64,000 nucleotides of DNA, from positions 29,938 to 93,937 of the forward strand of contig JAJCZA010000029.1 of the NCBI GenBank assembly GCA_029262635.1. Direction: 5' to 3'. The stretch is from Vampirovibrionales bacterium. GTDB taxonomy: Bacteria > Cyanobacteriota > Vampirovibrionia > Vampirovibrionales > Vampirovibrionaceae. Below the pieces are notes generated by a model. The model saw only the letters and a list, made by a program, of their open reading frames with translations, ran no database searches and was not told where the DNA came from. Positions 11,745 through 37,673 of the stretch are shown here, in pieces; the stretch's first letter is position 1, and each line of letters begins with the position of its first letter. Both the position numbers and the translations under genes were made by a program.

Positions 11745-12050
11745 TCAGTCAGTGATCCCAAAAGATCGCTTATTCATTCTTTCTGACCACTTCGCTAAAG
11801 GATTTGACTCATTATGAGGTGCTTCGGCAACTAGAACAGTACTTTGAGTATAATTAGCTGTTATTCGTGTAAAAATATCGTTTTGATCGGGTACATCAAT
11901 CCCCACACCGCAATGGCTTGTTGGAGAGGTCTTAAACGCCACTTTGGCACCATTAAGCTGACTTGAAATGGGTCTAAAGTCAGAGGTTCGAATAAAAAAC
12001 AGGCTACCAAAAGCGGGCTGGGAAAAATGGGTATTGGATAATGGTGTCAT
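11745..12050 (-). CDS. Hypothetical protein (101 aa) downstream of dnaE
   Basis: ORF on the same strand as dnaE. No motifs recognised. Confidence 0.3.
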   Translation of the reverse strand: MTPLSNTHFSQPAFGSLFFIRTSDFRPISSQLNGAKVAFKTSPTSHCGVGIDVPDQNDIFTRITANYTQSTVLVAEAPHNESNPLAKWSERMNKRSFGITD

Positions 12051-12155
12051 GAGAGAAAATCCTTTTCAAAGTGTGAAATGGTTATATCAAGGAGTTGTTA
12101 CGATAACAAACGGGTAACAAATTTTAAATTGCCTATTGGGCTAAGAAAATAACAT

Positions 12156-22918: not shown

Positions 22919-24640
22919 TTACTTCATTTGCCAGAGGGCGGCATCATTTTGAACCGGGTGCCTGAAAACGTCTGAAAAAGAGCGATGATAGACCTGTAAA
23001 ACAGGTTTTAAATACCGGTCAGACTCTCCAAATGCCGTGTCTTCAAGGATATAAACTGATCCATAACGCTGTTGCTTTTCTTGAAGGTAACTGTAAAATG
23101 CTTCTGTATCAGCGGTGAATGGGAAGGCAAGCGATTTTCTGTCACTATAATAATACGCCACTGGAGGCTTTCGGGTTATAATCAGGCTATTAGTAGGCGT
23201 ATTCTCTTTGATCCAGAGTAAGGTTTCATAATAGGCCCGATTATCAGGGCGACGTGAGGGGCCAACCTGAGCTATTTTAAGTTTATACCCGGCATTAACC
23301 CACCGCAGGGTATCTGGCAGGTGTCCACCCAGAAGTGCTACGCCGACAAACAGAGATAAGAAGTTTATGGAAACCTTTCTAAAGAAAGGTAATGGGAAGT
23401 GAGGTTGCAATAACTCAAGGCTACTCAGGATTCCTTGGTAGAGAATAATCAAAATAAAGGGAAAAACAGGCAGAATAAATCGAGGTGAGATGTAAGGATA
23501 AATCGCAAACACCCCTAAATAAATAATTAAATACAAGGACATAAGGGGGTAAGCCCTAAAAATAGAGGAAACTCCCACCAGGAAAAGAAGTGCCAAAAAC
23601 GGGGTGGCGTAATAAATAATATTGATTTTACTTCCATCTTCCGTTTTTACTCGAATAGGGGGCAAGAGCTGATCGGTTACGATTTTGCTATAGCCTGTGA
23701 CCCGTGCGCCAATAATTTCGGCATAATCTTCCAGTCCCTTGGCCATATGAGCGTTGTCTTGTGCTACAGGACTTTGCACCAGAAAATGTTTGATAAACTC
23801 CAGTTTAATGGGTGATTTATCGAGGAGGCTGCTTACTCCGGCTTGGTTCAGGGTCTCCCCCGTGACGGTGTGTGTACTTCGGTAGTAATGTTCATAGCCG
23901 GGCCAAAGTCCAGCGGCTAAAAGCAAAATAACGGCGGAAACTGTTAGAGTTTTCCATTCTTTTTTGAGCAGGAGGTAGGCTAAAAACCCGAGTAAAAGTG
24001 AGACACCCACTTGCCGCATCCAAAAAGACAGGGCGATGAAGATAATCCCCCAAGCTAAATGGGAGGAGAACCCTTTTGAGGAAGCGATTTCCTGGTTTTT
24101 TTCGAGGATTTTACTTTTCTGCCAGTGAGATAAAAAGAATAATGCTGCCATGGACAAAGCCCAGTAAGGCACATCAGACAAGACATCACTGCTGTATTTA
24201 AATATTAATGGATTGATCGCCAGAAAGAGGGTCAGTATACGGGTGTGCCAAAGGGAGAAATGGTCCCGAAGCCAATAATAAAACAGGGGAATGGATGCTA
24301 GAAAGAGGAGGTGAATTCCGCCTTTTAATACCCATTGGGCGGACTCCAGATCAGGCGTTCCTGATAACTTAAGCCAACCAGCAATTAATAGGGGGAGCAA
24401 TGGGGGAAATGTAAAATAGGGCTGAGCTTCTGGCCCATATTCTAGTAAATAGCCTTTTCCTGAGGCCAATGCCTGCCCAATCAGGCAGAAAATCGCGCTA
24501 TCGTGATTGACTACGGTTAAATAAGGGTTGAGCATTAATCCGAAAAGAACAGTAGAGAGAGCAAGCACCATGAGTAGAAATGGGCGATCTTTTTCAGTGA
24601 ACCACTGAATAAACGGGTTGTTATTGCAATTTTGTTGCAT
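22919..24640 (-). CDS. GT-C fold membrane glycosyltransferase (ArnT/PMT-like) #2
   Basis: 573 aa with about 12 TM segments. The N-terminal region has a DSAIF...G motif after TM1. Divergent from the GT2 operon. Confidence 0.6.
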   Translation of the reverse strand: MQQNCNNNPFIQWFTEKDRPFLLMVLALSTVLFGLMLNPYLTVVNHDSAIFCLIGQALASGKGYLLEYGPEAQPYFTFPPLLPLLIAGWLKLSGTPDLESAQWVLKGGIHLLFLASIPLFYYWLRDHFSLWHTRILTLFLAINPLIFKYSSDVLSDVPYWALSMAALFFLSHWQKSKILEKNQEIASSKGFSSHLAWGIIFIALSFWMRQVGVSLLLGFLAYLLLKKEWKTLTVSAVILLLAAGLWPGYEHYYRSTHTVTGETLNQAGVSSLLDKSPIKLEFIKHFLVQSPVAQDNAHMAKGLEDYAEIIGARVTGYSKIVTDQLLPPIRVKTEDGSKINIIYYATPFLALLFLVGVSSIFRAYPLMSLYLIIYLGVFAIYPYISPRFILPVFPFILIILYQGILSSLELLQPHFPLPFFRKVSINFLSLFVGVALLGGHLPDTLRWVNAGYKLKIAQVGPSRRPDNRAYYETLLWIKENTPTNSLIITRKPPVAYYYSDRKSLAFPFTADTEAFYSYLQEKQQRYGSVYILEDTAFGESDRYLKPVLQVYHRSFSDVFRHPVQNDAALWQMK

Positions 24641-24763: not shown

Positions 24764-26386
24764 ATGTTGAACCAGCTCCTTCCTCAATTCAATCATTTTT
24801 TCGCCCGGTTGGATGCCGGGGAAATCGTTCCCCATGCCCGCCCTTTGGCCCGTGTTATTGCGCCAAGTATTGCGGCAGCGCTGGCAAGTACTCAGTTGGC
24901 GATTGACTTAAAAAACGCGCCGGATCGGAAAACCCAAAAAAAAGTATTGATTCGGGACCTGCTGGCAATGGGGGGGATTATTGTTGGGCTGATAGCGGCG
25001 AGCAGAGCTTTAAGATGGCACTACGGTGTTTCCAACCATCTGCATTTGCCAGGAATTGCTCATGAACACGCCGAAAAAGCGGCAAACACGGCGAAAAAAA
25101 TCTTGAAAACTTCGCATGAGCGAATTACAGCCCTGTTTAAATCACCGAAATGCGATCACGCTGGTGAAGGTGTGGTTCGACTTCAGTCGATGGCTTTTGG
25201 CGGTATTTTAGGGGGCGGATTAGGCGGATTATTAGCGGATCGCATCAATGGAGAAGACCTGAGGCGAATGGCTGGCTTTAAATTAAAAGAAGGCTTATTT
25301 CAATACATTGGGAACATCACCTTTTGCACCGTGTCTATTTTGGCCATTGGTAAGTTGGGCAGGTATTGGGCGGAAAAGTACGCGGAATCTATCCTAAAAA
25401 AGGGGATGAAAACCCTTGAAGTATTTAAAGAAAAAACGGAAAAACATTTGAAAAACCTTATGGAAAAAGAAGTGGGCGATTTGAATACCTTGCCAGGCTC
25501 GGCGAGTGAATCCTTTGAAACTTATTGGTTGATGGCGACCAAAGATCAGAGGACTCTTCGACACGAATTTCATCATTTGGCCGATCATGCGAAACATCAA
25601 GGCCACGAGAATCCGAAAGCCTTAACTCGCTTGCTGGATCAGATGAAAACAACCCCTATAAAATATTCGCCAGATACTCGATTATTTCAGGAAGGGCTCT
25701 TACGCTACCTTAATGATGAGTTTGGTGAGCGGCTCGCTGGAAGACAAGGGAACGTTCTTTTAAACGAAATAAGCACTGAGCTGCTTCCGACTTTGGGCAA
25801 GTTATTTGAATCGGGTAATAAAAAAGAAGCCACACGGGTGTTTCGTGAATTTTATACCCGTCAGATTCAGGCCGATTTAAAAACAGTGACCCAAGAAAAG
25901 CGACACCTCTTTGATATTGCCAAGGAACGGTTTGCTATTTTTGGTGAGCGTATCGGGATTGTTGCCGGCCTATTTACCGGGATTATTGGTGGAGCCTTTG
26001 CCTCTAATGCCATTAATAAAGGACTCACTGATGTTTTGAACTTACCTGAAGGCCATGAGGTGAATGGCCTGTTCAGTGGACACGATCAAGGCAAGGGCTG
26101 GATGGAAGGGACCGTCGGAGAAAGGGGGATCCATTGGTGGGATGCTATTCTCCATCTCGATGATTGGCCTACAGCCCTTTATATTGCTGGGGTTCATTCT
26201 GTAGAGTCATTTATCAATGTTCTTTATGGGATTTCGGGGATGCTAACGGGTATGGCAGGAACGGACTACAAAACACCTCGATTTCAACCTTCTCAAGGGA
26301 AAAATAGAGGCTTCTACCCCAATAGTTCAGGCTACTCCCCCCTGAGTCGAAATCACCGAACCTACTCACGATTCTTGAATGGTTAG
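24764..26386 (+). CDS. Hypothetical membrane-associated protein (540 aa) within the glycosylation locus
   Basis: ORF with Gly-rich hydrophobic segments (GGILGGGLGGLLADR; GIVAGLFTGIIGGAFASNAI). No family recognised. Confidence 0.55.
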   Translation: MLNQLLPQFNHFFARLDAGEIVPHARPLARVIAPSIAAALASTQLAIDLKNAPDRKTQKKVLIRDLLAMGGIIVGLIAASRALRWHYGVSNHLHLPGIAHEHAEKAANTAKKILKTSHERITALFKSPKCDHAGEGVVRLQSMAFGGILGGGLGGLLADRINGEDLRRMAGFKLKEGLFQYIGNITFCTVSILAIGKLGRYWAEKYAESILKKGMKTLEVFKEKTEKHLKNLMEKEVGDLNTLPGSASESFETYWLMATKDQRTLRHEFHHLADHAKHQGHENPKALTRLLDQMKTTPIKYSPDTRLFQEGLLRYLNDEFGERLAGRQGNVLLNEISTELLPTLGKLFESGNKKEATRVFREFYTRQIQADLKTVTQEKRHLFDIAKERFAIFGERIGIVAGLFTGIIGGAFASNAINKGLTDVLNLPEGHEVNGLFSGHDQGKGWMEGTVGERGIHWWDAILHLDDWPTALYIAGVHSVESFINVLYGISGMLTGMAGTDYKTPRFQPSQGKNRGFYPNSSGYSPLSRNHRTYSRFLNG

Positions 26387-26486: not shown

Positions 26487-27575
26487 TTGACAATATCTTC
26501 ACGCTCTGGTAGCCCCACCAATTTACCGCTTATTTCAGTCGTTATTCCTATTTATAACGAATTTGAAACCTTGCCGGAACTGGTTAGCCGGCTGGATGAG
26601 TTGATTCAAGAGTACTCGGCTTATGGGTGGGAAGTCATTTTTATTAACGATGGCAGTTCAGACGGCTCAACTCAACTGCTTTCGGATTTAAGTGCTCGTT
26701 ACCTTTGGGCAAGCGTTCTGCACCTGTCTAGAAATTTTGGTCACCAGACAGCCATTAGTGCTGGGCTTGATTTTGCCCGAGGTGAGGCGGTTATCGTGAT
26801 GGATGGTGATCTTCAGGATCCGCCGGAACTGTTACCGCAGATGATTGAGCGTTGGCAATCGGGCTATGATGTGGTTTATGCCACAAGAAAGCATCGAGAA
26901 GGCGAGACACCGTTCAAACTGTTTACGGCCAAGCTCTTTTACCGCCTTCTTAAAGGCCTATCAGATGTGGATATTCCGTTGGATACGGGTGATTTTCGCC
27001 TTATGAGTCGTCCTGTGGTTAACGCTTTTTCCATGATGCGGGAGAGAAACCGCTTTATCCGAGGCATGGTTAGTTGGGTTGGGTTTTCTCAAACAGCCCT
27101 TTACTATGAGCGAGATAAACGAACCCATGGCGAAACTAAGTATACTCTGCTCAAAATGATTCGTTTTGCTGTGGATGGTTTGTTATCCTTTTCCACCGTC
27201 CCTTTGCAGTGGATTACGACGTTGGGCTTTATCATTTCCGCCATTAGCTTCCTTGCCATTGTTGGCGTTTTCTACGTATCACTTGTTATGCAAATTGCTC
27301 TGCCCGGCTGGAGTTCTCTCATGGTCGGTATTCTGATGATAGGTGGCATCCAATTGGTGTGCATGGGCATGATCGGCGAATACGTCGGTCGAATTTTTGA
27401 TGAAGTGCGCAACCGCCCCCTGTATCTAATTAGCAAAATAGATTCCCAAACTTTGTCCCAAACGACAAAAACGTACCCACCCCAACTCCGTGAGATGATG
27501 ATTCATGACCACTCAAACTCCAGAGAAATCCCACACGCCTTTACCGGACAATCCAACCCCGTCCTTAGCCACTGA
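26487..27575 (+). CDS. GT2 polyprenyl-phosphate sugar synthase (DPM1/ArnC/GtrB-like)
   Basis: ISVVIPIYNEFETLPELV, MDGDLQDPPELLPQMIE and DVVYATR, then two C-terminal TM helices (GtrB architecture). TTG start with an AAAGGG RBS. The about 45-aa C-terminal tail overlaps the next gene by 71 nt. Confidence 0.85.
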   Translation: MTISSRSGSPTNLPLISVVIPIYNEFETLPELVSRLDELIQEYSAYGWEVIFINDGSSDGSTQLLSDLSARYLWASVLHLSRNFGHQTAISAGLDFARGEAVIVMDGDLQDPPELLPQMIERWQSGYDVVYATRKHREGETPFKLFTAKLFYRLLKGLSDVDIPLDTGDFRLMSRPVVNAFSMMRERNRFIRGMVSWVGFSQTALYYERDKRTHGETKYTLLKMIRFAVDGLLSFSTVPLQWITTLGFIISAISFLAIVGVFYVSLVMQIALPGWSSLMVGILMIGGIQLVCMGMIGEYVGRIFDEVRNRPLYLISKIDSQTLSQTTKTYPPQLREMMIHDHSNSREIPHAFTGQSNPVLSH

Positions 27576-28386
27576 GAATACCCTGACGGAGCGTCAGATT
27601 ACTGAAGCTCGTTTTCATGACGAATGGGCCAAATCCATCAATTTTACGGAAATTGATCCGGAAATCACTTTTGAGGCGCCAACGGCCATTGAGTGTCAGT
27701 ATGTCTTGTCGCAAATAGATGAACTAGCTGGTAAGCGTATTTTGGATCTGGGCTGTGGCAGTGGTGAATCGGGCGTGTACTTTGCCAAGCAGGGTGCTGA
27801 GGTTTCGGCCTGTGATATTTCCCCTCAGTTTATTGAAGTGGCAAAACAGTTGGCGAACCATCACAGTGTGTCGCTGGACACGGTTGTCTGTCCGGCGGAA
27901 ACTCTTCCCTATCCGGATGACTCGTTTGATATTGTGTTTGCCAACGGCGTTTTACACCACGTGGACATCCCGCTAGCCATGGAAGAGATTCGTCGGGTAC
28001 TTAAGCCAAGGGGGAAAGGATTTTTCGTCGAGCCTTTGCCCTATAATCCGGTGATTAATATCTATCGTTGGATTGCTAAAGAGGTTCGCACGCCGGACGA
28101 GAAACCTCTGACCTTTACCGATATCGGTACTATCCGTAAACGCTTTCCCAAAACCCATGTAGAATACTTTTGGTTTTTTACGTTGGGGGTTTTTCTGTAT
28201 TTTTTCCTGATTGAACGGGCCAGTACGTCGGAACGGTATTGGAAAAAAATTCTTTATGAAGCGGATAAGTACAAAGCTATGTTCAGCTTTCTAAAAAAAC
28301 TGGATGACGTTATTTTACCTGCCCTGCCCTTACTCAAGCCTCTGTGCTGGAACATGGTTATTCAGATTCAAAAAAACGAGAAATAA
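27505..28386 (+). CDS. Class I SAM-dependent methyltransferase (Methyltransf_11-like) with C-terminal hydrophobic segment
   Basis: ILDLGCGSGESGVYFAKQGAEVSACDISPQFIEVA is motif I. A C-terminal segment FWFFTLGVFLYFFLI follows. Confidence 0.8.
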   Translation: MTTQTPEKSHTPLPDNPTPSLATENTLTERQITEARFHDEWAKSINFTEIDPEITFEAPTAIECQYVLSQIDELAGKRILDLGCGSGESGVYFAKQGAEVSACDISPQFIEVAKQLANHHSVSLDTVVCPAETLPYPDDSFDIVFANGVLHHVDIPLAMEEIRRVLKPRGKGFFVEPLPYNPVINIYRWIAKEVRTPDEKPLTFTDIGTIRKRFPKTHVEYFWFFTLGVFLYFFLIERASTSERYWKKILYEADKYKAMFSFLKKLDDVILPALPLLKPLCWNMVIQIQKNEK

Positions 28387-28423
28387 GTAAGCCCTGACAA
28401 CTCTCGGAGACTTTACCTCTTTT

Positions 28424-29254
28424 ATGGCGCAACTAACCCATTTATTGGATAACACCACCCTCTCTGGCGGGCTGTCTTACTTTGATTACGAATATCAGGT
28501 CGCCGAAGCCATTGTGATCCCTTGGCTAAAAAAACATATTTACCTTAATAATCTATCTGTTGGGGATTTTGGTTGTCATCAGGGAGGTATTCTTCAAGCT
28601 TTTCGAGAACATGGCACGATTAGTTCCGGGACAGGCTATGACTTGAACGAAGACAGCATTCGTACTAGCCCCTTTGTCCGTGACGCTAACTTTCAGCTGG
28701 AAGTTGGCGACGTGCTAACGCTGGATCCGACGGTGAACTCGTTTGATCTTATTCTCATTCGAGATGTGTTGGAACACATTCCAGATTACGAAAACGTGCT
28801 TAGAAAGGCGCAAGCCTGTTTAAAACCGGGTGGGTATTTGTTTATCTCTTTCCCGCCATATTACTCCCCATTTGGTGGGCATCAACAACTGGCCGCTAAT
28901 TGGGCCAAGCTGGTGCCTTATTTGCATTATCTTCCGGAATCTCTGCTGTTTCAGCTCGTATCGCTAGTCGATAACAGCTACATGTCGGCTGAGGACTCTA
29001 AAGGTGACATGACTTCCGTTCGTCGCACTCGCTTAACATTAGGTAAAACCGAAAAAGCTTTTCAAGCAATAGGCCTTCTCCCTGTGGCGCAGGATTACTT
29101 TCTCTTACGGCCCGAGTTTAAAATTCGATACGGGATTCCAGCCCTTCCTTGCGCTATTATGGGACGTATTCCTTTCTTGAGAGAAGTCGTTACCATGGGC
29201 GTTTACTATCTGGTTCAAAAGCCGAATAGCCCCTGTTTAAAGGGACATCATTAA
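28424..29254 (+). CDS. Class I SAM-dependent methyltransferase #2
   Basis: DFGCHQGGILQAF... and DLILIRDVLEHIPDYENVLRKAQACLKPGGYLFISFP. Confidence 0.75.
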   Translation: MAQLTHLLDNTTLSGGLSYFDYEYQVAEAIVIPWLKKHIYLNNLSVGDFGCHQGGILQAFREHGTISSGTGYDLNEDSIRTSPFVRDANFQLEVGDVLTLDPTVNSFDLILIRDVLEHIPDYENVLRKAQACLKPGGYLFISFPPYYSPFGGHQQLAANWAKLVPYLHYLPESLLFQLVSLVDNSYMSAEDSKGDMTSVRRTRLTLGKTEKAFQAIGLLPVAQDYFLLRPEFKIRYGIPALPCAIMGRIPFLREVVTMGVYYLVQKPNSPCLKGHH

Positions 29255-29256
29255 TT

Positions 29257-30204
29257 GTGAGCACGGCCACCCACAACGAAAACACAACCCCACCTCAGCA
29301 TTCGTCAGCTGAGGGTGTTAGCCATTCGCTGGCGGTGATTGAACCGTTGAGTTATCAATGCCCCTTTTGTCGGGGCAAACTGTCTAACGATATGGGTGAA
29401 AGCTATACCTGTTTTGATTGTCGAGCTAATTACTCTTCCCGGTTTCCTCGTGGCAAACGTCAGCCGGATTTTCGGATTGATGGCGGGGTCTATTCTAAAC
29501 GGCTGGATAAAACCGAAAGCTTTCAGAACCGTATTAAAATGATCCTGCGAAAATTTCCGGGTCTGTACCGCTTCTTGGTCTATGTCATCGGCCCGGCGCT
29601 TCTCCTTGGTCCAACCTCTCAAACCTTTGTTAACCAATTGAGTCCACATGACCGGGTGTTGAACATTGGTTCGGGTGTGATGCGCCTGAAAGGTAACGTC
29701 ACCCATCTGGATTATGAACCTTACCCTCATTTAGAAGTTGTTGGTGACGCACATCATCTGCCTTTTTCTGACAACTCCTTTGATGCTGTGGTTTGTGAGA
29801 CCTTGTTGGAACATGTGCCCGAACCTGCCCGGGTTATTAACGAAATGCGGCGGGTATTGCGGCCTGGTGGTAAAATCTACGTGATGATGCCGTTTATTTT
29901 TAATTTTCACGCTGCTCCCAATGATTTTCATCGGTTTACCCACCGGGGATTAGAACATCGGATGCGAGGATTTAAAAAAGATCAGCTTAAGGTTATTGCA
30001 GGGCCCACGTCTGCACTGACCTGCGTGTTGATCGAATGGTTGGCCATGGTCTTTTCATTTGGTAGTAGCACCCTGTATCGCTTTCTCAGTCTGTTTTTTA
30101 TGGTCTTATTATCGCCATTAAAGCTGTTGGACTTTGTTCTTTCTGCCCATCCAGAAGCCATACGCATCGCCTCGGTTCTCCTGTTTATTGGAACCAAGCG
30201 ATAG
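29257..30204 (+). CDS. Class I SAM-dependent methyltransferase #3 with N-terminal Cys4 zinc ribbon
   Basis: CPFCRGKLSN...CFDCRANY is a zinc ribbon. VLNIGSGVMRLKG... and DAVVCETLLEHVPEPARVINEMRRVLRPGGKIYVMMPF form the MTase core. There is a 2-nt gap from the previous gene. Confidence 0.8.
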   Translation: MSTATHNENTTPPQHSSAEGVSHSLAVIEPLSYQCPFCRGKLSNDMGESYTCFDCRANYSSRFPRGKRQPDFRIDGGVYSKRLDKTESFQNRIKMILRKFPGLYRFLVYVIGPALLLGPTSQTFVNQLSPHDRVLNIGSGVMRLKGNVTHLDYEPYPHLEVVGDAHHLPFSDNSFDAVVCETLLEHVPEPARVINEMRRVLRPGGKIYVMMPFIFNFHAAPNDFHRFTHRGLEHRMRGFKKDQLKVIAGPTSALTCVLIEWLAMVFSFGSSTLYRFLSLFFMVLLSPLKLLDFVLSAHPEAIRIASVLLFIGTKR

Positions 30205-30213
30205 GAGCACTCT

Positions 30214-31680
30214 TTGTTCATGCCTGATCTGTTTGAATCTATTTTTATGACCCGCTGGCTAATGTTAGGGTCCATGATGGTTTTGGGTGGGTTTACAGTA
30301 CTCTTAATCCGATCCCTCTGGCGGGATGGAAACACTCTGAAACAGGGGAAGCCAGAATTCCATCCGTTCCGTTGGCCAGTGATCTTGTTGGGTGTTGGGT
30401 TGCTTTTACGGTTGGGCTGGATTATAGCCACCCAACCGGAACCCATTAGTGATTTTCTTATTTATTGGCAATACGCCAGCGCTTTTGCTCAAGGAGGTTA
30501 TACTTACGCGGAGTTGAGCCGGCATCCGGGGATTATTGTCTTATATTCATGGTTTTTTAATCTGTTTGGCACGTCGCTGGCTACAGGTTGGGCCATGAAC
30601 ATGCTTTTTTCGGCGCTCATGATGGTGTTGATGTATGCGTTAGGTACTGATATTTTTGGCCGAAGAGCCGGGTTGCTGGCTTTGGGGTTGACGGCGTTTT
30701 TACCCCAGTTAATAACCTATACAGCACTGTTTGCTTCGGAAACCCCTGCCATTGCCTGCTTTTTGATGGTGCTTTGGGCGGTACTGTACAGCCGGAACCA
30801 TCCCGTCGGGCAGACCCTCGGTTACTGGATTGCTTTGGGGGTTCTGCTTTATGCCACTATTCTTCTTCGCTCCAGTGCCATGATCTTTTTGGGATTGATT
30901 CCTGTGCTGTTTTTTCTGTTTCGCCGAGACTATTGGCAAACGGTTCTCAAGCAATTTGCAGTCTTGGCCGTGACCACGGCCTTGCTGCTTTCTACATGGA
31001 TTGCCCACCAAAACGTTATTGGTGGCAGCCCAAAAATGTTTTGGGGCGCGGAACTCTGGTTGGGGTGTGCGATTCAGTACGAACGTGGTGGACGCTATAC
31101 GGATCCCAAAGACATGGGGTTTTACGAAAAAATTAAACCCTATTACGAAGCGGGTAATTTAATTAAAGCTTATGAAATCATTGGAGAGGAGTCCATGAAA
31201 GTAGTCCTCGCTGATCCGTTTAAATACTTGGCCAATGGTGTTACCCGAATGCGGTATATTGTTTGGACCTCTCAGACTGGCATTCGTTGGAGCCACCGGG
31301 GGAGTCAAGTGGGTTCTGGGTTGATGGATCGCTGGCCTCAAAAATACATCAACAAGCTGGCCAATGTCTCTACGATTCTTTGGCAGATTATTCTGTGCAC
31401 CTCTTTGTTAGGGCTATTTACTTATCGTCCTCGCTTTTATCAAAAACGGTCAGACACCGTACAAGAGACTCATCAAGAAGGGTGGGTTTTTATCCTGGGC
31501 TTTCTTCTTATTTGGGGTGTATTTCATTACCTGTTTGCTGTGGCGAGTGAGCGCTATTCTTTCCAGATCATTCCGTTTATCTTATTGTTCTTCTCCGGTG
31601 GTGTGTTATGGATGATTCGAACCCTAAGCGAGCTTTTCCAAAAATCATCGGTTACAATGGAATCAGAGTCACTTCACTAA
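30214..31680 (+). CDS. GT-C fold membrane glycosyltransferase (ArnT/PMT_2-like) #3, terminal gene of the GT2-MT-MT-MT-GT-C operon
   Basis: 488-aa polytopic protein. Loop WRDGNTLKQGKPEFHPFRWPVILLGVGLLLRLGWIIATQPEPISDFLIYWQYASAFAQGGYTY resembles the ArnT/PMT N-terminal region. It lies 9 nt after MTase #3. Confidence 0.65.
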   Translation: MFMPDLFESIFMTRWLMLGSMMVLGGFTVLLIRSLWRDGNTLKQGKPEFHPFRWPVILLGVGLLLRLGWIIATQPEPISDFLIYWQYASAFAQGGYTYAELSRHPGIIVLYSWFFNLFGTSLATGWAMNMLFSALMMVLMYALGTDIFGRRAGLLALGLTAFLPQLITYTALFASETPAIACFLMVLWAVLYSRNHPVGQTLGYWIALGVLLYATILLRSSAMIFLGLIPVLFFLFRRDYWQTVLKQFAVLAVTTALLLSTWIAHQNVIGGSPKMFWGAELWLGCAIQYERGGRYTDPKDMGFYEKIKPYYEAGNLIKAYEIIGEESMKVVLADPFKYLANGVTRMRYIVWTSQTGIRWSHRGSQVGSGLMDRWPQKYINKLANVSTILWQIILCTSLLGLFTYRPRFYQKRSDTVQETHQEGWVFILGFLLIWGVFHYLFAVASERYSFQIIPFILLFFSGGVLWMIRTLSELFQKSSVTMESESLH

Positions 31681-31692
31681 ATCCTATAATAG

Positions 31693-32184
31693 TTGAAAAC
31701 GCCATTGATGAAATATTTTAAGTACTATAGCATTCTGTTTTTAATGAATTTGGTCTGCTTTTCTATCGTGTTTTGTTCGGGTTTTGCAAACGAGCGCCTT
31801 ATTTTATTGGATGAAACGTTTGGTGGCCCAACCACGTACTTGGACTTAGCCAGTTTGCGGCCGGATTCAGCCAATACAGTCGAATTCAATCTGTTAATCG
31901 ATTATAATCGACCGGCCCCTCCGTACATTGCTCCCAAACCCAAATTTCCCGGCATTCTAAAGCAGGTTCCAGTGGTGGACCGTGCTGTACCCATCCGGAA
32001 AATTCAGTTAAACCTGTTGGCGCACTGCCCACAAAAACAGTATGCCATTACCCGAACGGTTCATTATGATGGGTATCAAAAAGAAATTTACCGACTCCAG
32101 ACCTCAACGCCTCACTGGAAACCTTTCCGACTAAACGACGATCCCGTCGATCGCCTTTTGTACCAACGAGTTTGTCCTTCGTAG
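31693..32184 (+). CDS. Hypothetical secreted protein (163 aa), possibly last gene of the glycosylation operon
   Basis: Signal peptide MKYFKYYSILFLMNLVCFSIVFCSGFA. It lies 12 nt after GT-C #3. Confidence 0.5.
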   Translation: MKTPLMKYFKYYSILFLMNLVCFSIVFCSGFANERLILLDETFGGPTTYLDLASLRPDSANTVEFNLLIDYNRPAPPYIAPKPKFPGILKQVPVVDRAVPIRKIQLNLLAHCPQKQYAITRTVHYDGYQKEIYRLQTSTPHWKPFRLNDDPVDRLLYQRVCPS

Positions 32185-32217
32185 GAATGAAAATAAGAGC
32201 GAACGGCTCCAAGACCT

Positions 32218-32697
32218 TTAGTTTTCTTTGGGTTGAAGTATTTTAAAAAGGTGTGGAAATAGTGCTTTGAAGCGGTTCATCACATGGTGAAATTCTTTAC
32301 AGCTGGTATTTCCATTGCAAATACCCGAGAGCGTAATGTTGGGATAGCTTTTAGAAAGTGTTTCTAGATAACTCTGACTCTCTTCTTGGCCTATCTTTTT
32401 AAGATTTTCCAGATTATGCTGCTGAGCAAAGTTTTCTCGTTCAAGTATCTTCTTTAGAAGAGGATAGATAGAATTTTTATTATGAAGAACTTGCGTGTTT
32501 TCTGGTTTAATGGGTCCTATATTATTGACTCTTATGGTTTCATCATCAAGATTGAGGGCTAATTGAAAAGAGTCATTTCCAAAAGAAGAGAGGGGTGCAA
32601 GTTGCCTATCTTTTCCAGTCAGGTGAGCAGTCAGCAAGGCTTCATTTGTTGACATGTTTGCTGATAAAATCTGAATACTCCCAAATGTGATTGCCAT
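32218..32697 (-). CDS. Hypothetical protein, paralog A of tandem pair
   Basis: 159 aa. Shares LTxxDxxLAP...F.DD.F.L...KILE.R...YL..L.K.YPN.TL...FHHVM..F with 32750-33229. Confidence 0.5.
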   Translation of the reverse strand: MAITFGSIQILSANMSTNEALLTAHLTGKDRQLAPLSSFGNDSFQLALNLDDETIRVNNIGPIKPENTQVLHNKNSIYPLLKKILERENFAQQHNLENLKKIGQEESQSYLETLSKSYPNITLSGICNGNTSCKEFHHVMNRFKALFPHLFKILQPKEN

Positions 32698-32749
32698 GAT
32701 AACCGAACGTTCCTTATTTTATTGCTTTATCCTCAGTCGTGATCGTATT

Positions 32750-33229
32750 TTACGAAGCGGGTGGATCTTTTTCTATAAACTGTTCAAAAATCTGCATAAC
32801 ATGGTGAAAATCTTGATAATAATGGGCTCCATTCACGTTTTCAAGGGTCACATTCGGATAGGTTTTCGTCAGCGCATTTAAGTACACTTTATTTTCGATT
32901 CCCTTTTCTTTTTTAAGTGTCGCTAACAGGGCTTGAGCGTTTAGTGTTCGATTTTCCAATATTTTATTGAGCAAGAGGAGAGCATGTTTTGTTTGGATGG
33001 GTACAGTGATTCTCTGTAAGCTGTTTCCAAGCAAAGGCAATTCTCCTTGGACGAGCAATCCCTGTTCGGCATGATTGGCCCGTAACTCAAAAAAATCATC
33101 CTTAAAGGCTGGCACTGGTGCCAAGGCCTGATCCTCTTTCGTTAACCGGACACTCATGGAGGTTTGGTTACGCCCATCTTGATCATAGTGCTTAGCCGAA
33201 CTGACTGAAATACCCTTAAACTTAATCAT
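32750..33229 (-). CDS. Hypothetical protein, paralog B of tandem pair
   Basis: 159 aa, the same length as paralog A and collinear with it. Confidence 0.5.
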   Translation of the reverse strand: MIKFKGISVSSAKHYDQDGRNQTSMSVRLTKEDQALAPVPAFKDDFFELRANHAEQGLLVQGELPLLGNSLQRITVPIQTKHALLLLNKILENRTLNAQALLATLKKEKGIENKVYLNALTKTYPNVTLENVNGAHYYQDFHHVMQIFEQFIEKDPPAS

Positions 33230-33261
33230 ACCCTTGATATATTCCCTCTTATTGCTGTTAG

Positions 33262-33531
33262 CTAGCCCAAGAGATTCAATCGTGTTCCAATTTTCCCAGT
33301 CAGAGCGACTAAATCTTGCTGGGTGTTATTCAGTGCGCTAGTCCCTTTAACGCCAAATAAGTCCAGTCCGTCTAACTTTGGCAAAGTGGTTCCCGAAAAA
33401 GCGGTTTGAGCTTGCTTTGTGCTTGAAACACTAGCAGTCGGTTTAACCGGATTCATACCGGAACCTTGAAATCGGAGGGCTTCTAATGACATAAGATAGA
33501 AATCCAGATTGGTTAATAACGGTGTAATCAT
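33262..33531 (-). CDS. Small hypothetical protein (89 aa), paralogous to 33666-33872
   Basis: Shares the FQG(S/N) ... (A/V)xFSGT(T/Q) ... G Ser/Thr/Gly-rich pattern with the next small ORF. Confidence 0.4.
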   Translation of the reverse strand: MITPLLTNLDFYLMSLEALRFQGSGMNPVKPTASVSSTKQAQTAFSGTTLPKLDGLDLFGVKGTSALNNTQQDLVALTGKIGTRLNLLG

Positions 33532-33665
33532 AGCAGGAGCATGATTTTAAGGCAAAATTTATTTTATTATAAACCAGTAGAGTTGAGCTATTTTCTAATA
33601 CCAAAAAACCGGGATGACAGTCCCGGTTATCAATAACGAATATAAGAATATGAGTAAGTAAGTAC

Positions 33666-33872
33666 TTAAGCTATGACATTCAAGTTTTTTCCAGCCAATG
33701 ACATTCCACCGGAGAAGCGAGGCATCAAAACGCCTGTATTATCACCAAACTGAGTACCTGAAAAAGTGACGGGTGCCTTTTTTGTATGTTTCATAAGGCC
33801 TTCCGTAAGATGACTTTTGACATGATTCAAAAATGCTGGCTGATTCCCCTGAAAAGATCCAACTTTCTGCAT
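33666..33872 (-). CDS. Small hypothetical protein (68 aa)
   Basis: See 33262-33531. It lies directly downstream of nrdJ on the same strand. Confidence 0.4.
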   Translation of the reverse strand: MQKVGSFQGNQPAFLNHVKSHLTEGLMKHTKKAPVTFSGTQFGDNTGVLMPRFSGGMSLAGKNLNVIA

Positions 33873-33953
33873 AGATTCCCTCCTAAATGCTGTGTTCAGA
33901 AACCATTGTACCAGAAACTCTCTGATCGGGCAAATGTCCGCTTAACAATTATG

Positions 33954-35885
33954 TCAATCGCACTCCAGGCAAGTCGAAGAACCGAACGTGTCTGGGTGTC
34001 CTTCCAGAGACATGGGTTGATTTTGGCGACTGTTATCACGGTACACCGTTAGCCCTTTGATTGTTCTGGAACGAAAACCTTGCCAATAGGCTTCAGCAAT
34101 GTCTTTCTGCTTTGCGTCTTCAGGAAAGTTAATGGTTTTGGACACGGCGTTGTCTGTAAACTCTTGAAAAGCTTCTTGCATAAGGATATGCCAGTGGGGG
34201 GAAATATCATGTGCGGTGACAAAAAGGCGTTTCATGGATTCAGGAACTTCTTCTAAATGAGCCAATGTTCCGGCTTGTGTAATTTTTAGCAGGGTTTTCT
34301 GTTTGTCTATCGGCGTGGTTGCCAACCATTTGAGAAAAAGGGGGTGGGCCTCTGTCAGCTCTTCACCATCTAGTACATGGCGATTAAAAGCAACGGAAAA
34401 CAGGGGTTCAATACCCCCAGAAGCCCCTGCGATGATGCTGATAGTTCCAGTGGGGGCTATACAGGTGGTTGTCGCGTTTCGAAGCCCTTCCTGATGAATA
34501 GCTCTGTCCAGTGCCTCCCAATGACTTTGCTGAAGGAGTTGGGTTGGGTGACGGCCATGTTTTTCTGTAAGCCAATGCCTTATGGCATACGGGCTTTTTG
34601 GAAAGTTTGGAAACGAGCCTCGTTCTTTCGCGAGAGCCACGGATGCCTGTTTGCTATGGTAGTCTATCCAGCTGGCCACTTCTCGGGCTAATGTTGTGGC
34701 TTCTTCAGTATCATAGGGAATTCCGAGAGCCAGTAATAAATCGGCCCAGCCCATGACGCCCAGTCCAATTTTTCGGTTCCCTAATACTTGTTCCTCAATC
34801 TTGGGTAGTGGGTACTGGTTCTGGGTAATCACGTTATCCAAAAACCTTACGGCCAGCGTGACAGTTTCTGCCAGTGATTCCCAGTTGATAACTGTCTGAC
34901 TGTCTGTTTCTTTTAGAAAACGTCCCAGATGAATAGAACCCAGATTGCAGGCTTCGTAGGGTAGCAGAGGTACTTCGCCGCAGGGATTGGTGGATTCAAT
35001 GAGTCCGATGGCAGGTGTCGGGTTATCCTGGTTAATGCGATCAATAAAGACCAGTCCGGGTTCGCCCGAAAGCCAGGCGTTTTTAACAATTTGATCGAAC
35101 AATTTTCGGGCCGGTATGTTTTTTACCGTTAGCCTGCTCCCTGGATGAATCAATGGGAAATCCGAATCCGTTTCTACAGCGTGCATAAAGGCATCTGTAA
35201 TGGCGATAGAAATATTGAAATTGGTAATTTGGTCTAAATCCCGCTTGCAGTGGATAAAGGCTTCAATGTCTGGATGGTCTATCCGTAAAATACCCATATT
35301 GGCACCTCGACGAGTACCTCCTTGCTTGACGGCTTCGGTGGCGGCATTATAAACCTTCATAAAGGATACGGGACCGGAGGACACCCCCATGGTCGAGTTA
35401 ACTCGATCCCCCTGAGGACGAAGATTTGAAAAAGAAAATCCGGTACCGCCGCCGCTTTGATGGATTAGTGCCGCATGCTTCAGGGTATCAAAAATGGATT
35501 CCAGTGAATCCTGAATGGGGAGAACAAAGCAGGCGGATAATTGCCCAAGGGGTTGTCCGGCATTCATAAGGGTGGGGCTGTTAGGCATAAAGCGCAGGCT
35601 GGTCAAAAGTTCGTAAAACGTACGGGCCCATTGTTCAACCTCAACTTTGGTCTTTCCGCAGGCCGCCTCTCCTCGCGCAATGTGGCAGGCTACGCGCCAG
35701 AATAGCTCATTGGGCGTTTCCGATACCTGACCTTTGTCGTCCCGTAACAAATAACGGTGTGCCAGAACTGTCAGACTGTTTTCTGTCAGGCTATTTTCCG
35801 GATGGAAGTCTTTGGGGAGAGGCATTGGTTTAAATGAACTCATTTTGTTTTTATGACTCCTGTAAAAAGGCTCTTTCTCTATCAT
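33954..35885 (-). CDS. nrdJ: Class II (adenosylcobalamin-dependent) ribonucleotide reductase
   Basis: 643 aa with no ATP cone and no adjacent nrdB. Active-site TNPCGEVPLLPYEACNLGSI. N-terminus HPENSLTENSLTVLAHRYLLRDDKGQVSETPNELFWRVACHIA is typical of NrdJ. Confidence 0.85.
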   Translation of the reverse strand: MIEKEPFYRSHKNKMSSFKPMPLPKDFHPENSLTENSLTVLAHRYLLRDDKGQVSETPNELFWRVACHIARGEAACGKTKVEVEQWARTFYELLTSLRFMPNSPTLMNAGQPLGQLSACFVLPIQDSLESIFDTLKHAALIHQSGGGTGFSFSNLRPQGDRVNSTMGVSSGPVSFMKVYNAATEAVKQGGTRRGANMGILRIDHPDIEAFIHCKRDLDQITNFNISIAITDAFMHAVETDSDFPLIHPGSRLTVKNIPARKLFDQIVKNAWLSGEPGLVFIDRINQDNPTPAIGLIESTNPCGEVPLLPYEACNLGSIHLGRFLKETDSQTVINWESLAETVTLAVRFLDNVITQNQYPLPKIEEQVLGNRKIGLGVMGWADLLLALGIPYDTEEATTLAREVASWIDYHSKQASVALAKERGSFPNFPKSPYAIRHWLTEKHGRHPTQLLQQSHWEALDRAIHQEGLRNATTTCIAPTGTISIIAGASGGIEPLFSVAFNRHVLDGEELTEAHPLFLKWLATTPIDKQKTLLKITQAGTLAHLEEVPESMKRLFVTAHDISPHWHILMQEAFQEFTDNAVSKTINFPEDAKQKDIAEAYWQGFRSRTIKGLTVYRDNSRQNQPMSLEGHPDTFGSSTCLECD

Positions 35886-35991
35886 AGATGAAAAAGCGGC
35901 TTGAGCCTACTGCTTATAAATGGTTGGCGTGCTAGCGAATGCCAAAGCTTTAAAAATCAGGTAAAATAAGAAACAGGAGTAAGAACCTGTC

Positions 35992-36780
35992 ATGACCCAA
36001 ACCTATCTGGATCAATGCTTAAAAGATGATCTGACCGTGCGTTGGCCGGACAGCGCTATGCCCATTAAGGTTTATGTGGCGCCCTTTAAGTGGTATGAAA
36101 AATCCAAACAGCAGGAATCGTACGCTTACAATAAAATGGTGCTGGAAGCCTTAAATCTCTGGTCTAATATTTCCAATGGGAGCATTAAATTTCAGTTGGT
36201 TCAGGCTGTGAGTCAGTCTCAGATTGATATTAGCTGGCGGCGGGTCGATCGAAAATCGCTGGGTCATTGCGAATATCTGATTAGCCCAGACTCGGCCATG
36301 TATTCTTGCGAAATTAAAATCGGAATTTCCGATGGACTGATTCATGCGCAATATAACGATTTTAGCGAGGTCGAGCATACGATTCTTCACGAGTTAGGTC
36401 ATGCGTTGGGCCTCATCGGTCATAGTAAGGGCTCGACGGATATTATGTATGTCCCCCATCAATATGGGGTTACGGGTCTTTCCAAACGAGACGTGGAAAC
36501 CCTCCGGTGGCTTTATAAACTTCCGGTGGGCTTCAATTATCAAATGGCCGGACAAAAGTATAATTTACCTCCCGGTTTTACGATTCACGATGTGATTGAC
36601 GCCATGTTAGGGGGCACGTCCAAAGCAAAACCTCAAAGTAGCTCTTCCAAGGAGGAAAAGAAATACCGGGAAAAGCCGGAAATTCTTCTTGAGCATCATG
36701 ATATTTTAGAGCAAATGGGCAAATTCCACATGTCTACCCAAAATATTCTCAAGCCCCCGTCCGATAAAAATAACGCCTGA
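35992..36780 (+). CDS. Matrixin-like zinc metalloprotease (metzincin, M10)
   Basis: HELGHALGLIGHS (HExxHxxGxxH) plus the Met-turn STDIMYVP. No signal peptide is apparent. Confidence 0.8.
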   Translation: MTQTYLDQCLKDDLTVRWPDSAMPIKVYVAPFKWYEKSKQQESYAYNKMVLEALNLWSNISNGSIKFQLVQAVSQSQIDISWRRVDRKSLGHCEYLISPDSAMYSCEIKIGISDGLIHAQYNDFSEVEHTILHELGHALGLIGHSKGSTDIMYVPHQYGVTGLSKRDVETLRWLYKLPVGFNYQMAGQKYNLPPGFTIHDVIDAMLGGTSKAKPQSSSSKEEKKYREKPEILLEHHDILEQMGKFHMSTQNILKPPSDKNNA

Positions 36781-36857: not shown

Positions 36858-37673
36858 ATGGTTAATTCGCTTTCATTCCATAGAGCCGTTCTCTCTTCGA
36901 CCCCTTCTTTAGGGGGCTTAACGTCTCAAGTAGGAAATTTCCAATCGGAGAAAATAACGTTTCTAAAAGCGAGCCCTGTGAAAAGGCTTGCTTTTCCGGC
37001 CATGGGAACCGTGATGTTTCTGGGTCAAAACCATTCAAAGCTTGAATCTCAGACTGTTTTGTCCAGATTAGCCGAACGGAATGGTACGAGCGTTCAACAT
37101 TTATCGCCAATGATAGCCCTACTCCCAGAAGTGCTTTCAGAAAAAAATTCTAAAGAACTCATAGAGCTTGCTCGTCAGCTCATTGAATCTGATCGAATAC
37201 CTTCAGGGCTTTTACAAACCTCTGAAGGACGAGTGATTAAGAGTCGAAGCAGTCAATTGGCTCGCGCTCGAATGAGTGGAGCTAAAATCGACTCTATATT
37301 AAATGGACTGGGTAATACCTTGGGCATTTCTGCTCGGAATATGGAACCCATGGTACAGGTTTTGTGTTATCAAGAAAGCGATGAAATGGCGTACCATTCG
37401 GATGAGCTAAAACCGTCTAAAAAACAGGGCGGAAAAGCGATAAAAAATCAACGTGTTCTTTCGTTGGTTGCTTCTCTTGATTCAAAATTAAAGAAAGGAG
37501 GTTCTACGGAGTTTAAAGATGATCAGATCAATCAGGGCAAGTCATTAAATATTCAATTGCCTCCACGTCATGCTCTTTTGTTTGAGTCTTATTTAAATCA
37601 TCGTGGAGCCTCCGTTGTTGAAGGTGAAAAGTGGGTTCTTGTGGTTTGGATCCGCCAAAAAGCACTGTCCTAA
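36858..37673 (+). CDS. Prolyl-4-hydroxylase-like 2OG-Fe(II) oxygenase (C-terminal domain)
   Basis: Facial triad HxD...H (YHSDEL ... NHRG) and C-terminal VVEGEKWVLVVWIR (compare P4H GNKWVANKWIH). Confidence 0.6.
   Translation: MVNSLSFHRAVLSSTPSLGGLTSQVGNFQSEKITFLKASPVKRLAFPAMGTVMFLGQNHSKLESQTVLSRLAERNGTSVQHLSPMIALLPEVLSEKNSKELIELARQLIESDRIPSGLLQTSEGRVIKSRSSQLARARMSGAKIDSILNGLGNTLGISARNMEPMVQVLCYQESDEMAYHSDELKPSKKQGGKAIKNQRVLSLVASLDSKLKKGGSTEFKDDQINQGKSLNIQLPPRHALLFESYLNHRGASVVEGEKWVLVVWIRQKALS

Follow-up and report, generated by a model that had tools for sequence, protein, structure and literature searches.

Results

Genes and signals downstream of nrdJ

The window analysed here is a 64,000-nucleotide stretch of DNA, in which the first-pass annotation had placed four minus-strand ORFs directly downstream of nrdJ, and the present analysis finds the four with the same boundaries (Table 1). 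The product of nrdJ matches the equivalog model TIGR02504 (NrdJ_Z) at 713.7 bits against a cutoff of 399.95, holds both domains of the large subunit of ribonucleotide reductases (RNRs; PF02867, E=2e-143; PF00317, E=1e-25) and keeps a CxxC tail, ending in CLECD. Relatives with 48-67% identity are found in many phyla, including Omnitrophota, Endomicrobia, Planctomycetia and archaea. The two genes for small proteins that follow nrdJ, p68 and p89, precede two genes for proteins of 159 residues, 159a and 159b. With this small-small-large-large order, in which the 159-aa genes stand in tandem, no two-gene module was duplicated.

Table 1. Features of the nrdJ-159b region (window coordinates)
Feature	Coordinates	Strand	Evidence or remarks
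nrdJ, adenosylcobalamin-dependent (class II) ribonucleotide reductase	33954..35885	-	TIGR02504; Pfam Ribonuc_red_lgC/lgN
Predicted sigma-70-type promoter of p68	33905..33933	-	Promoter scan; TTGCCC, 17-nt spacer, TACAAT, upstream TG
p68, 68 aa	33666..33872	-	SD, ortholog, dN/dS
Predicted intrinsic terminator of the p68 unit	33607..33628	-	AACCGGGA-CTGTCA-TCCCGGTT then TTTTTGG
Promoter-like sites near the p89 5' end	33573-33544; 33555-33527		Promoter scan
p89, 89 aa	33262..33531	-	ORF and codon score; gene status uncertain
Alternative p89 starts	33492 (M14); 33456 (M26)
159a, 159 aa	32750..33229	-	Paralogy, codon score, AF2 model
159b, 159 aa	32218..32697	-	Paralogy with 159a; more diverged second copy
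Weak terminator-like hairpin downstream of 159b	32196..32210	-	Terminator scan; 5 pairs, 3 G-C; weak evidence
Convergent gene, 163 aa	31693-32184	+	33-nt gap from 159b

The region had been described as richer in AT than its surroundings. Its GC content is indeed 0.394 against 0.450 for the window, the lowest among all 1655-bp stretches in it, and 159b (0.367), lower than every long gene, has the highest AT content of any gene in the window. When codon usage was scored in six frames, the annotated frame came out best for all four ORFs, with p68 ahead only marginally and its score (-0.005) near zero. The score of 159a (0.214) is typical of the window genes (0.206 +/- 0.066).

None of the four proteins had been assigned to a recognisable family, and this stands: no match at threshold was obtained in Pfam-A, NCBIfam, PADLOC or PHROGs. 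Several further ORFs of the same window likewise have no Pfam match. Rfam gave no match at the gathering score over the whole window, and nothing at E<=1 over 31500-36200, so that a riboswitch or sRNA does not explain the locus. The repeat scan returned short chance-level repeats, with no noteworthy direct or inverted repeats at the flanks. No matches were obtained among viral contigs, phage records or plasmid records, and no secretion-system genes, including Rhs, CDI, T6SS and T3SS, lie within ~10 kb. The suggestion that some of the products are secreted finds no backing in the proteins themselves, since a direct reading of the four sequences reveals neither signal peptides nor hydrophobic segments in any of them.

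Synteny ends at the p68 stop codon

The region was compared with that of a syntenic relative (L057, GCA_029262655.1). Synteny extends from ~49771 of the window to 33664, where it breaks off precisely with the stop codon of p68; within it, the two nrdJ genes are ~69% identical in nucleotide sequence. The gene nrdJ is the anchor of this conserved block. Past its p68 ortholog, the relative has three small, unrelated genes but none for a 159-aa protein, and tblastn with 159a and 159b gave no hit there. The neighbouring glycosylation/methyltransferase cluster is likewise absent from it. All sequence beyond the p68 stop codon would belong to a lineage-specific variable segment of low GC. Since the contig of the relative ends 2.4 kb past its small genes, this segment may reflect a breakpoint of rearrangement instead of an insertion.

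p68 is a constrained gene with its own signals

The p68 gene has an AGGAGG ribosome-binding site 8 nt upstream of its ATG, and its predicted promoter sits in the 81-nt spacer behind the nrdJ stop codon. The spacer is conserved in the syntenic relative (80 nt), as are the promoter hexamers and their spacing (TTGCCT, 17 nt, TATAAT). The terminator hairpin, with 8 pairs of which 5 are G-C in the terminator scan, is seen in both the MFE and the centroid folds. The ortholog, r66 (positions 15959-16159 of the relative), is 48% identical (E=1e-19). Between the two, the dN/dS ratio is 0.17 for the gene as a whole but 0.04 for its last 27 codons (pS 0.70). We conclude that p68 is a real gene under purifying selection.

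The protein is basic (pI 10.3) and rich in Gly, Ser, Thr and Phe, with repeated F-x-G motifs, and its AF2 model (pLDDT 52, pTM 0.11) predicts disorder. On these features, p68 would be a separately expressed, monocistronic gene encoding a small, basic, disordered protein, whose last 27 residues, FG(D/N)NTGVLMPRFSGGM..AG.NLN(V/L)(I/L)A, are under strong purifying selection. By inference, we take this tail to be a docking element, a short linear motif through which p68 would bind another protein.

In precursors of RiPP type, the leader is conserved and the core after GG variable, and a C39-peptidase ABC exporter or an enzyme of modification is encoded nearby. A double-glycine-leader peptide of this kind was considered for p68 and rejected: the segment after GG, M(S/T)(L/M)AG(K/Q)NLN(V/L)(I/L)A, is among the most conserved parts of the protein and not variable, and the Pfam-annotated neighbourhood of p68 holds no C39/ABC exporter genes. 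In its size of 60-70 aa, Gly-richness and predicted disorder, p68 resembles small hydrophilic disordered stress proteins (CsbD/YjbJ, KGG-repeat and hydrophilin-like), a likeness that extends to its monocistronic organisation with a strong promoter, an SD and a terminator. However, it matches neither CsbD nor KGG nor any other family in Pfam, and it differs from these proteins in being basic and Phe-containing, with its constraint concentrated in the C-terminal 27 residues.

The two small proteins compared

The small proteins had been read as a pair sharing FQG and FSGT. The motifs are literally present in both p68 and p89, but the comparisons do not support paralogy. BLASTP aligns only 16 residues (E=0.015), and a profile built from p68 and its true ortholog gives p89 an E-value of 2, a level also reached by random ORFs from the window. 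Global and local alignments gave p ~0.003-0.027 in shuffle tests, and at least four shared 3-mers, or one shared 4-mer, occur in ~10% of shuffles. Moreover, the p68 ortholog loses the motifs, with FSG in the place of FQG and FKGA in that of FSGT. An alignment of the small proteins, used in a word-indexed search of 5.8 billion proteins, retrieved only p68 and p89 themselves. A candidate origin of the small proteins as degraded 159-aa copies was discarded (E=0.77 when their profile was aligned to the 159-aa family with hhalign).

p89 has a codon score of 0.15, clearly the best of its six frames and above the 90th percentile of the 60-100-aa ATG ORFs of the window. None of its three ATGs is preceded by a clear SD. 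Searches of 5.8 billion proteins, of the syntenic relative and of the other loci turned up no homolog, and the best tblastn match to the relative was not significant (E=0.24). A likeness seen by eye between the p89 segment FSGTTLPKLDGLDLFGVKG and the tail of the 62/64-aa proteins of the relative, FGAT.QKPL.QDVF.EGMG, was borne out neither by BLASTP nor by a profile comparison and was rejected. The protein is short and of low complexity, and matches no toxin or other domain.

159a and 159b belong to a rare family

The 159-aa proteins had been called clear paralogs, and they are 33% identical over 150 of 159 residues (BLASTP, E=8e-20). On this similarity, 159a and 159b are a tandem duplicate. 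The second gene begins 52 nt downstream of the first, with its own SD-like AAGGA, and the 20-mer coding for FHHVM is 90% identical between the two genes (repeat D1). Pairwise and HMM comparisons of the four ORFs therefore leave one real tandem duplication, that of the 159-aa genes; similarity fails for the small genes, which had been proposed as duplicated too.

In an exhaustive HMM search of 1.84 billion representative proteins, the only credible relatives were P0010, P0011 and P0013, and a separate search added a further member, P0014. The family thus counts six members among ~1.8 billion representative proteins. 159a matches these four relatives at pairwise E-values of 7e-7 to 2e-14, and all pairwise BLASTP E-values inside the family are <=9e-5. 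P0009 and P0012 were rejected as members, as their profile matches arise only by summing weak hits to repeats and are spurious. The word-indexed search of 5.8 billion proteins with 159a returned only itself. The alignment of 159a and 159b found no match among contigs of GTDB representative genomes, a set that therefore does not include this genome, and profile searches of metagenome contigs with either the 159-aa or the p68 family found nothing. P0010 and P0013 form a second tandem pair, in that order, with a 35-nt gap (L056). P0014 lies on the same 565-kb contig as this pair; should that contig and the one of the window stem from a single MAG, its genome would have five paralogs in two clusters. 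P0011 is a solo copy amid housekeeping metabolism genes (L055), with a GC content of 0.593 against 0.589 for its host contig. The family is patchy over genomes of very different GC (0.45 and 0.59).

The family conserves a strand at the N-terminus (FG.I.(I/V)(T/S).A), a motif LT.ED..LAP and the helix PLL.KI; columns that do not vary are F4, I7, A12, L29, D33, L36, A37, P38, F47, L49, L86 and L87. Across its six members, there are no family-wide residues of catalytic type, although with so few sequences a lack of conserved polar residues says little. What the family retains would be structural only, namely positions in the hydrophobic core and a helix cap, T-x-x-D, with LAP behind it.

The AF2 model of 159a is confident (pLDDT 84.4, pTM 0.80). 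Remote-homology searches nonetheless bore out the lack of a recognisable family: neither the PDB sequence profile search nor Pfam gave a match above threshold for any member, and Foldseek with the 159a model found no match at E<=0.001 in the PDB (best TM 0.21), nor one in BFVD, though predicted structures of cellular proteins may yet include a fold relative. DUF3196 was rejected as an assignment: residues 83-156 of 159a match it at E=3.2e-4 with 20.8 bits, below the gathering cutoff of 28.2, the other five members do not match it, and no such structure came up in the PDB fold search. Closest in structure to the model are the Megavirus 'Robin' proteins (BFVD A0A8K1T2F9 and K7YW20), which align over 76-84 columns with an rmsd of 3.0-3.8 A and a Foldseek probability of 0.99-1.00. 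However, only half of the protein is aligned (TM 0.37), identity is 10-12%, and the E-values of 0.05-0.07 are not significant. A literature search on 'Robin' proteins found no paper.

Discussion

The locus is a variable nest of orphan genes with one tandem duplication, and its genes, p89 less certainly than the others, are real but ordinary lineage-specific ones. We put at slightly better than even the reading in which the four ORFs are three separate units at the edge of the conserved nrdJ synteny block, and not one duplicated module. The first-pass annotation had seen a cassette of two paralog pairs. This is not supported, since p68 is a separate unit, conserved in the syntenic relative without 159-aa genes, and p89 has no detectable relative anywhere searched. 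In the preferred reading of three units, p89, apparently the first ORF of the 159a/159b unit, would stand at the 5' end of that unit either as a small gene of recent, lineage-specific origin or as a leader that is translated. 159a and 159b would be a co-transcribed tandem duplicate within a rare and patchy family of cytoplasmic alpha/beta proteins of 160-180 aa. Given the confident, well-ordered domain predicted for it, the family is an old and rare one, and not a de novo gene. As no catalytic-type residue is shared family-wide and no known fold was matched, we infer from this negative evidence that the 159-aa proteins are non-enzymatic binding or adaptor proteins, possibly immunity-like, and perhaps 159a and 159b act together as a hetero-oligomer.

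Among uncultured bacteria of deep-branching lineages, such orphan families are common. The locus resembles taxonomically restricted orphan genes at synteny breakpoints, in that its genes have no relatives beyond a few genomes, are low in GC and lie where synteny ends, one of them is locally duplicated, and in the syntenic relative other, unrelated genes take the place of the small neighbours. It differs from such genes in that the 159-aa family is not strictly lineage-restricted, P0011 having a host-like composition in a 59%-GC genome, and has a confident, well-ordered predicted domain.

Lateral acquisition had been offered as an alternative, and a lineage-specific or acquired origin fits the low GC and the variable genome position. 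The possibility that p89-159a-159b is an islet laterally acquired beside nrdJ-p68 concerns origin and is compatible with the three-unit reading. The GC minimum, an atypical composition such as genomic islands have, the end of synteny at the p68 stop codon and the patchy family distribution point to it, but no integrase, transposase, tRNA (Rfam at gathering score), notable flanking repeats or phage, plasmid or viral relatives accompany it. Moreover, the codon score of 159a is host-typical, orphan and fast-evolving genes are commonly AT-rich without transfer, and the absence of the glycosylation/methyltransferase cluster from the relative may indicate a larger rearrangement. We therefore hold acquisition to be possible but not the likelier origin. 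A comparable, minority weight goes to p89 being no gene but a chance ORF within the 5' leader of the 159a/159b mRNA. Its candidate starts without an SD, the failure to find a homolog and a likeness to p68 at chance level are all consistent with this, whereas its high codon score in the best frame and its prediction by the gene caller of a public collection argue for a gene. It is less probable, and indeed unlikely, that 159a and 159b are an immunity-protein array of a polymorphic-toxin/effector system, with p89 perhaps as a degenerate toxin remnant; they would then neutralise a toxin encoded elsewhere or lost. Like immunity proteins of the Imm/SUKH/SMI1 type, they are small, cytoplasmic alpha/beta proteins without a catalytic motif, they occur as divergent tandem paralogs (in two loci) of sporadic distribution and extreme rarity in a low-GC variable region, and p89, like orphan toxin fragments, has no good start of translation. 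However, no toxin-domain gene lies upstream, and no toxin domain, Rhs/CDI/T6SS/T7SS gene, other delivery system or PADLOC match was found nearby; p89 is short, of low complexity and without any match; immunity families in Pfam or the PDB share neither sequence nor fold with 159a and 159b; and P0011 sits among housekeeping genes at the GC of its host.

The earlier proposal of secreted substrates with cognate binders or chaperones, in which the small Ser/Thr/Gly-rich proteins and the 159-aa proteins form one four-gene module, now looks improbable. The four genes neighbour one another on one strand, p89 apparently shares a transcription unit with 159a and 159b, and the disorder predicted for the small proteins is frequent among clients of chaperones. 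Nevertheless, small genes and 159-aa genes are not found together elsewhere: the syntenic relative has p68 and three other small genes but no 159-aa gene, and the solo homolog (L055) has no small partner ORF nearby. In the window, a promoter and a terminator of its own insulate p68. Class I chaperones of type III secretion are acidic proteins of ~130-150 aa with a CesT-type alpha-beta fold, encoded beside their effector in genomes that have a T3SS. 159a and 159b were rejected as chaperones of this class (CesT/SycE-like), with a pI of 7.8-8.0, no chaperone structure among the PDB Foldseek matches of 159a and no secretion-system gene within ~10 kb. Rated lower still is an analogy in which p68 would be an accessory factor of the class II RNR, with its conserved C-terminal tail docking on NrdJ, much as in class I RNRs the C-terminal peptide of the R2 subunits binds R1. 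The position of p68 beside nrdJ in both genomes, behind a conserved spacer, and the very strong constraint on its tail suggest such a role, but the genomes are close relatives (70-80% nucleotide identity), so the adjacency may be mere inherited synteny, and p68 has its own promoter. The surroundings of nrdJ in 53 other species contain no relative of p68 or of the 159-aa proteins, and there is consequently no link with nrdJ beyond this lineage. Besides, class II RNRs are known to require no second subunit, and this NrdJ keeps its own C-terminal CxxC tail. The full combination, in which the 159-aa proteins have a new fold and form a paired hetero-oligomeric binding or immunity-like unit while p68 is a novel type of small disordered partner whose tail docks on the class II RNR, would be a very long shot.

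Taken together, the locus adds to the catalogue of microbial dark matter a family of 160-180-aa proteins, predicted to be well folded, with six members and no relative in Pfam, NCBIfam, PDB or BFVD, and a constrained family of small proteins, p68/r66. Here, new means that nothing known could be matched, and the practical importance is modest. The locus is also a clean example of the turnover of gene content immediately past a conserved gene block. Were the fold of the 159-aa family new against the AlphaFold DB as well, structural genomics would gain a candidate. Binding of p68 to NrdJ, if it occurs, would be relevant to RNR biology, with p68 as an accessory factor for a class of enzymes thought to need none.

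Results

The four minus-strand ORFs beyond nrdJ, the adenosylcobalamin-dependent (class II) ribonucleotide reductase gene, lie exactly where the first-pass annotation placed them, and nrdJ itself is genuine (its score of 713.7 bits clears the 399.95 cutoff of TIGR02504 NrdJ_Z). In all four, codon usage scores better in the annotated frame than in any of the other five. Their AT-richness was also confirmed: the GC content of the region is 0.394 versus 0.450 for the window, the lowest of any 1655-bp stretch in it, and 159b (0.367) falls below every long gene. The supposed cassette of two paralog pairs is nevertheless three things, not one: p68 is part of a conserved nrdJ block, and the segment beyond it is lineage-specific and low in GC, with an unconserved ORF (p89) and a tandem duplicate of an old, extremely rare family (159a and 159b).

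Genes at the locus and relatives of the 159-aa proteins
Feature	Length	Position	Strand	Codon score	Assignment or source
nrdJ		33954-35885	minus		class II ribonucleotide reductase; TIGR02504 NrdJ_Z and both RNR large-subunit Pfam domains
p68	68 aa	33666-33872	minus	-0.005	
p89	89 aa	33262-33531	minus	0.150	
159a	159 aa	32750-33229	minus	0.214	
159b	159 aa	32218-32697	minus	0.091	
Long genes of window				0.206 +/- 0.066	
P0010	172 aa				HMMER search
P0011	166 aa				HMMER search
P0013	181 aa				HMMER search
P0014	183 aa				added by profile search

The nearest relative (L057; NCBI GCA_029262655.1, contig JAJCYZ010000240.1), reached via a 90%-identical relative of the window's acyl-CoA dehydrogenase, shares with the window a syntenic stretch of 67-80% nucleotide identity that runs from about 49771 to 33664. 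In L057, 80 nt separate nrdJ from a 66-aa gene that is 48% identical to p68 (E=1e-19), and similarity between the two genomes ends exactly at the p68 stop codon, with zero positions aligned by blastn below 33664. A tblastn search of L057 with 159a, 159b and p89 gave nothing significant (no match for the first two, best E=0.24 for p89). Between p68 and its ortholog, synonymous sites are near saturation (pS 0.70) and dN/dS is 0.17 for the whole gene and 0.04 for the last 27 codons, FG(D/N)NTGVLMPRFSGGM(S/T)(L/M)AG(K/Q)NLN(V/L)(I/L)A. This combination argues that p68 is a translated gene under constraint, whose C-terminal tail would be the functional part. Both proteins are basic (pI 10.3 for p68, 12.0 for the ortholog), and AF2 predicts p68 to be disordered (pLDDT 52).

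Within the 81-nt spacer beyond the nrdJ stop codon is a sigma-70-like promoter (TTGCCC, 17 nt, TACAAT, TG upstream), whose hexamers and spacing are kept in L057. In conservation, the spacer (33873-33953; 15879-15958 in L057) equals or exceeds the coding DNA on either side, and the -35/-10 hexamers and the 17-nt spacing are among its conserved parts. A ribosome-binding site (AGGAGG) lies 8 nt 5' of the ATG, and a strong intrinsic terminator (33628-33607; 8-bp stem, then TTTTTGG) lies 3' of the gene. Given this predicted promoter, Shine-Dalgarno (SD) sequence and terminator, p68 is probably a self-contained, independently expressed unit. Promoter-like sites occur at 33573-33527, just upstream of p89, which has no convincing SD at any of three candidate ATGs; gaps of 32 nt and 52 nt separate p89 from 159a and 159a from 159b, both 159-aa genes are preceded by an SD-like sequence, and only a weak hairpin lies between 159b and the convergent 163-aa gene. 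From these signals and spacings, the predicted transcription units are p68 and p89-159a-159b. The idea of a duplicated two-gene module fails.

Beyond its p68 ortholog, L057 carries three other Gly/Pro/Ser-rich small genes, of 59, 62 and 64 aa, and then a convergent carboxyltransferase gene. All four small genes (L057 15959-17112) have their own SD, and their products lack Pfam matches. The 62- and 64-aa proteins are paralogs (E=1.5e-8), both acidic, with the common tail FGAT..KPL.QDVF.EGMG. The spot after nrdJ-p68 seems to gather fast-turnover genes for small disordered proteins.

In the window, p68 and p89 were also thought to be paralogs, a view that did not survive. FQG and FSGT do occur in both, and BLASTP aligns them at E=0.015 over 16 residues only; shuffle tests of the alignment score gave p values of 0.003 to 0.027, depending on the parameters. 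At least four common 3-mers, or one common 4-mer, appear in about 10% of shuffles, and such sharing is unremarkable for two Gly/Ser/Thr-rich peptides. The L057 ortholog lacks both motifs (FSG in place of FQG, FKGA in place of FSGT), and a profile built from it and p68 matches p89 at E=2, inside the noise of random window ORFs. That p68 and p89 are degraded copies of the 159-aa family was rejected (hhalign E=0.77).

The 159-aa proteins are indeed paralogs (33% identity across 150 residues, E=8e-20), and their alignment contains the motifs originally quoted (LT..D..LAP, KILE, YPN.TL, FHHVM). The DNA coding for FHHVM (32278-32297 and 32795-32814) is identical at 18 of 20 nt (90%), far above the rest of the two genes; a small patch of gene conversion, or constraint acting locally, could be the cause. 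When 5.8 billion proteins were searched by word index, the query matched only itself. With a two-paralog HMMER profile run exhaustively over 1.84 billion cluster representatives, the credible relatives were P0010, P0011 and P0013; including P0014, all pairwise BLASTP comparisons among the six proteins give E <= 9e-5. Two further hits, the repeat proteins P0009 (400 aa) and P0012 (783 aa), were regarded as spurious, reaching E of about 1e-5 to 1e-7 by summing seven weak repeat-unit matches, although the P0009 unit, which contains ...RDDNKIGPLTDFDSYWFSLALNF, does resemble the LT.ED..LAP...F.D..F.L motif.

One 565-kb NCBI contig carries P0010, P0013 and P0014, the first two as a second tandem pair in which P0013 comes directly after P0010, with a 35-nt gap. 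The Logan contig of this pair and that of the window come from a common sequencing run, and GC is 0.445 at that locus versus 0.450 in the window; the locus may belong to a relative, or even to the same MAG. P0011 is a solo copy of host-like GC, flanked by menaquinone-biosynthesis-type and TfoX-like genes, on a 59%-GC metagenome contig (L055), with no small partner ORFs nearby. Two genes upstream (L055 5776-6870) is a 364-aa protein with HEAGH (HExxH, zincin-like) and no Pfam match on record; a matrixin-type zincin adjoins nrdJ in the window (35992-36780), probably by coincidence. Searches of GTDB representative genomes, JGI metagenome contigs, viral contigs, and phage and plasmid records turned up no relatives, and nothing related lies near nrdJ of 53 other species.

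The AF2 model of 159a from the six sequences is confident (pLDDT 84.4, pTM 0.80), with a predicted order of two strands, a helix, three strands, three helices, a short strand and a last helix. Foldseek found nothing in the PDB at E<=0.001 (best TM 0.21) and nothing significant in BFVD, where the best matches, two Megavirus 'Robin' proteins, align over half the length (TM 0.37, E=0.05). A PDB-sequence profile search and Pfam scans of all six members gave only noise, and PADLOC and PHROGs no match, in agreement with the initial failure to recognise a family; DUF3196 was discarded as a sub-threshold match in one member of six. Besides positions of the hydrophobic core, the invariant columns comprise D33 and L36-A37-P38, which look like a T-x-x-D helix cap with LAP after it. 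The His-His of FHHVM is present only in 159a and 159b, and neither signal peptide nor hydrophobic segment is apparent in the 159-aa sequences.

Adjoining the locus is a plus-strand cluster (26487-31680) encoding a GT2 glycosyltransferase, three class-I SAM methyltransferases and a PMT_2-type glycosyltransferase, at whose end a 163-aa orphan with an N-terminal hydrophobic anchor (31693-32184, plus strand) converges with 159b. Searched against L057, the PMT_2 gene had no match and the orphan none of significance (E=0.79). Where the window has a 2OG-Fe(II) oxygenase gene (36858-37673), L057 has an unrelated 523-aa orphan in the equivalent place (10885-12456), a second case of local gene replacement, this one inside the otherwise syntenic block. 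This genome is rich in orphan genes: several more ORFs (170-570 aa) without a Pfam match lie at 22919-24640, 24764-26386, 43762-44280, 44439-45128, 47554-48225 and 53928-55031.

Discussion

Since no catalytic-type residues are shared family-wide, the 159-aa proteins would be cytoplasmic binders or adaptors with no enzymatic activity, and may be immunity-like; their predicted co-transcription and the tandem pairs in two loci suggest that they would work jointly, perhaps as a hetero-oligomer. An immunity-protein array fits the gene style, but no toxin accompanies it. The proposal that the small proteins are substrates and the 159-aa proteins their binders finds little favour, because outside the window the two kinds of gene do not occur together. 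As to origin, lateral acquisition of the segment beyond p68 is plausible: composition, the synteny break and the patchy distribution favour the island first proposed, although no mobility signature was found and the codon usage of 159a is host-typical.

For its part, p68 would act through a C-terminal short linear motif docking on a partner. Adjacency to nrdJ in two close relatives is the one observation that points to an NrdJ accessory factor. We consider very improbable the combined reading in which the 159-aa family has a new fold and functions as a paired binder and p68 docks on NrdJ.

Neither sequence nor structure tied the 159-aa family or p68 to anything known, which leaves both unclassifiable and, by distance, new. 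As a phenomenon this is commonplace: a variable spot holds orphan genes and a tandem duplication, the lineage is uncultured, and several other ORFs of the window are Pfam-less too.
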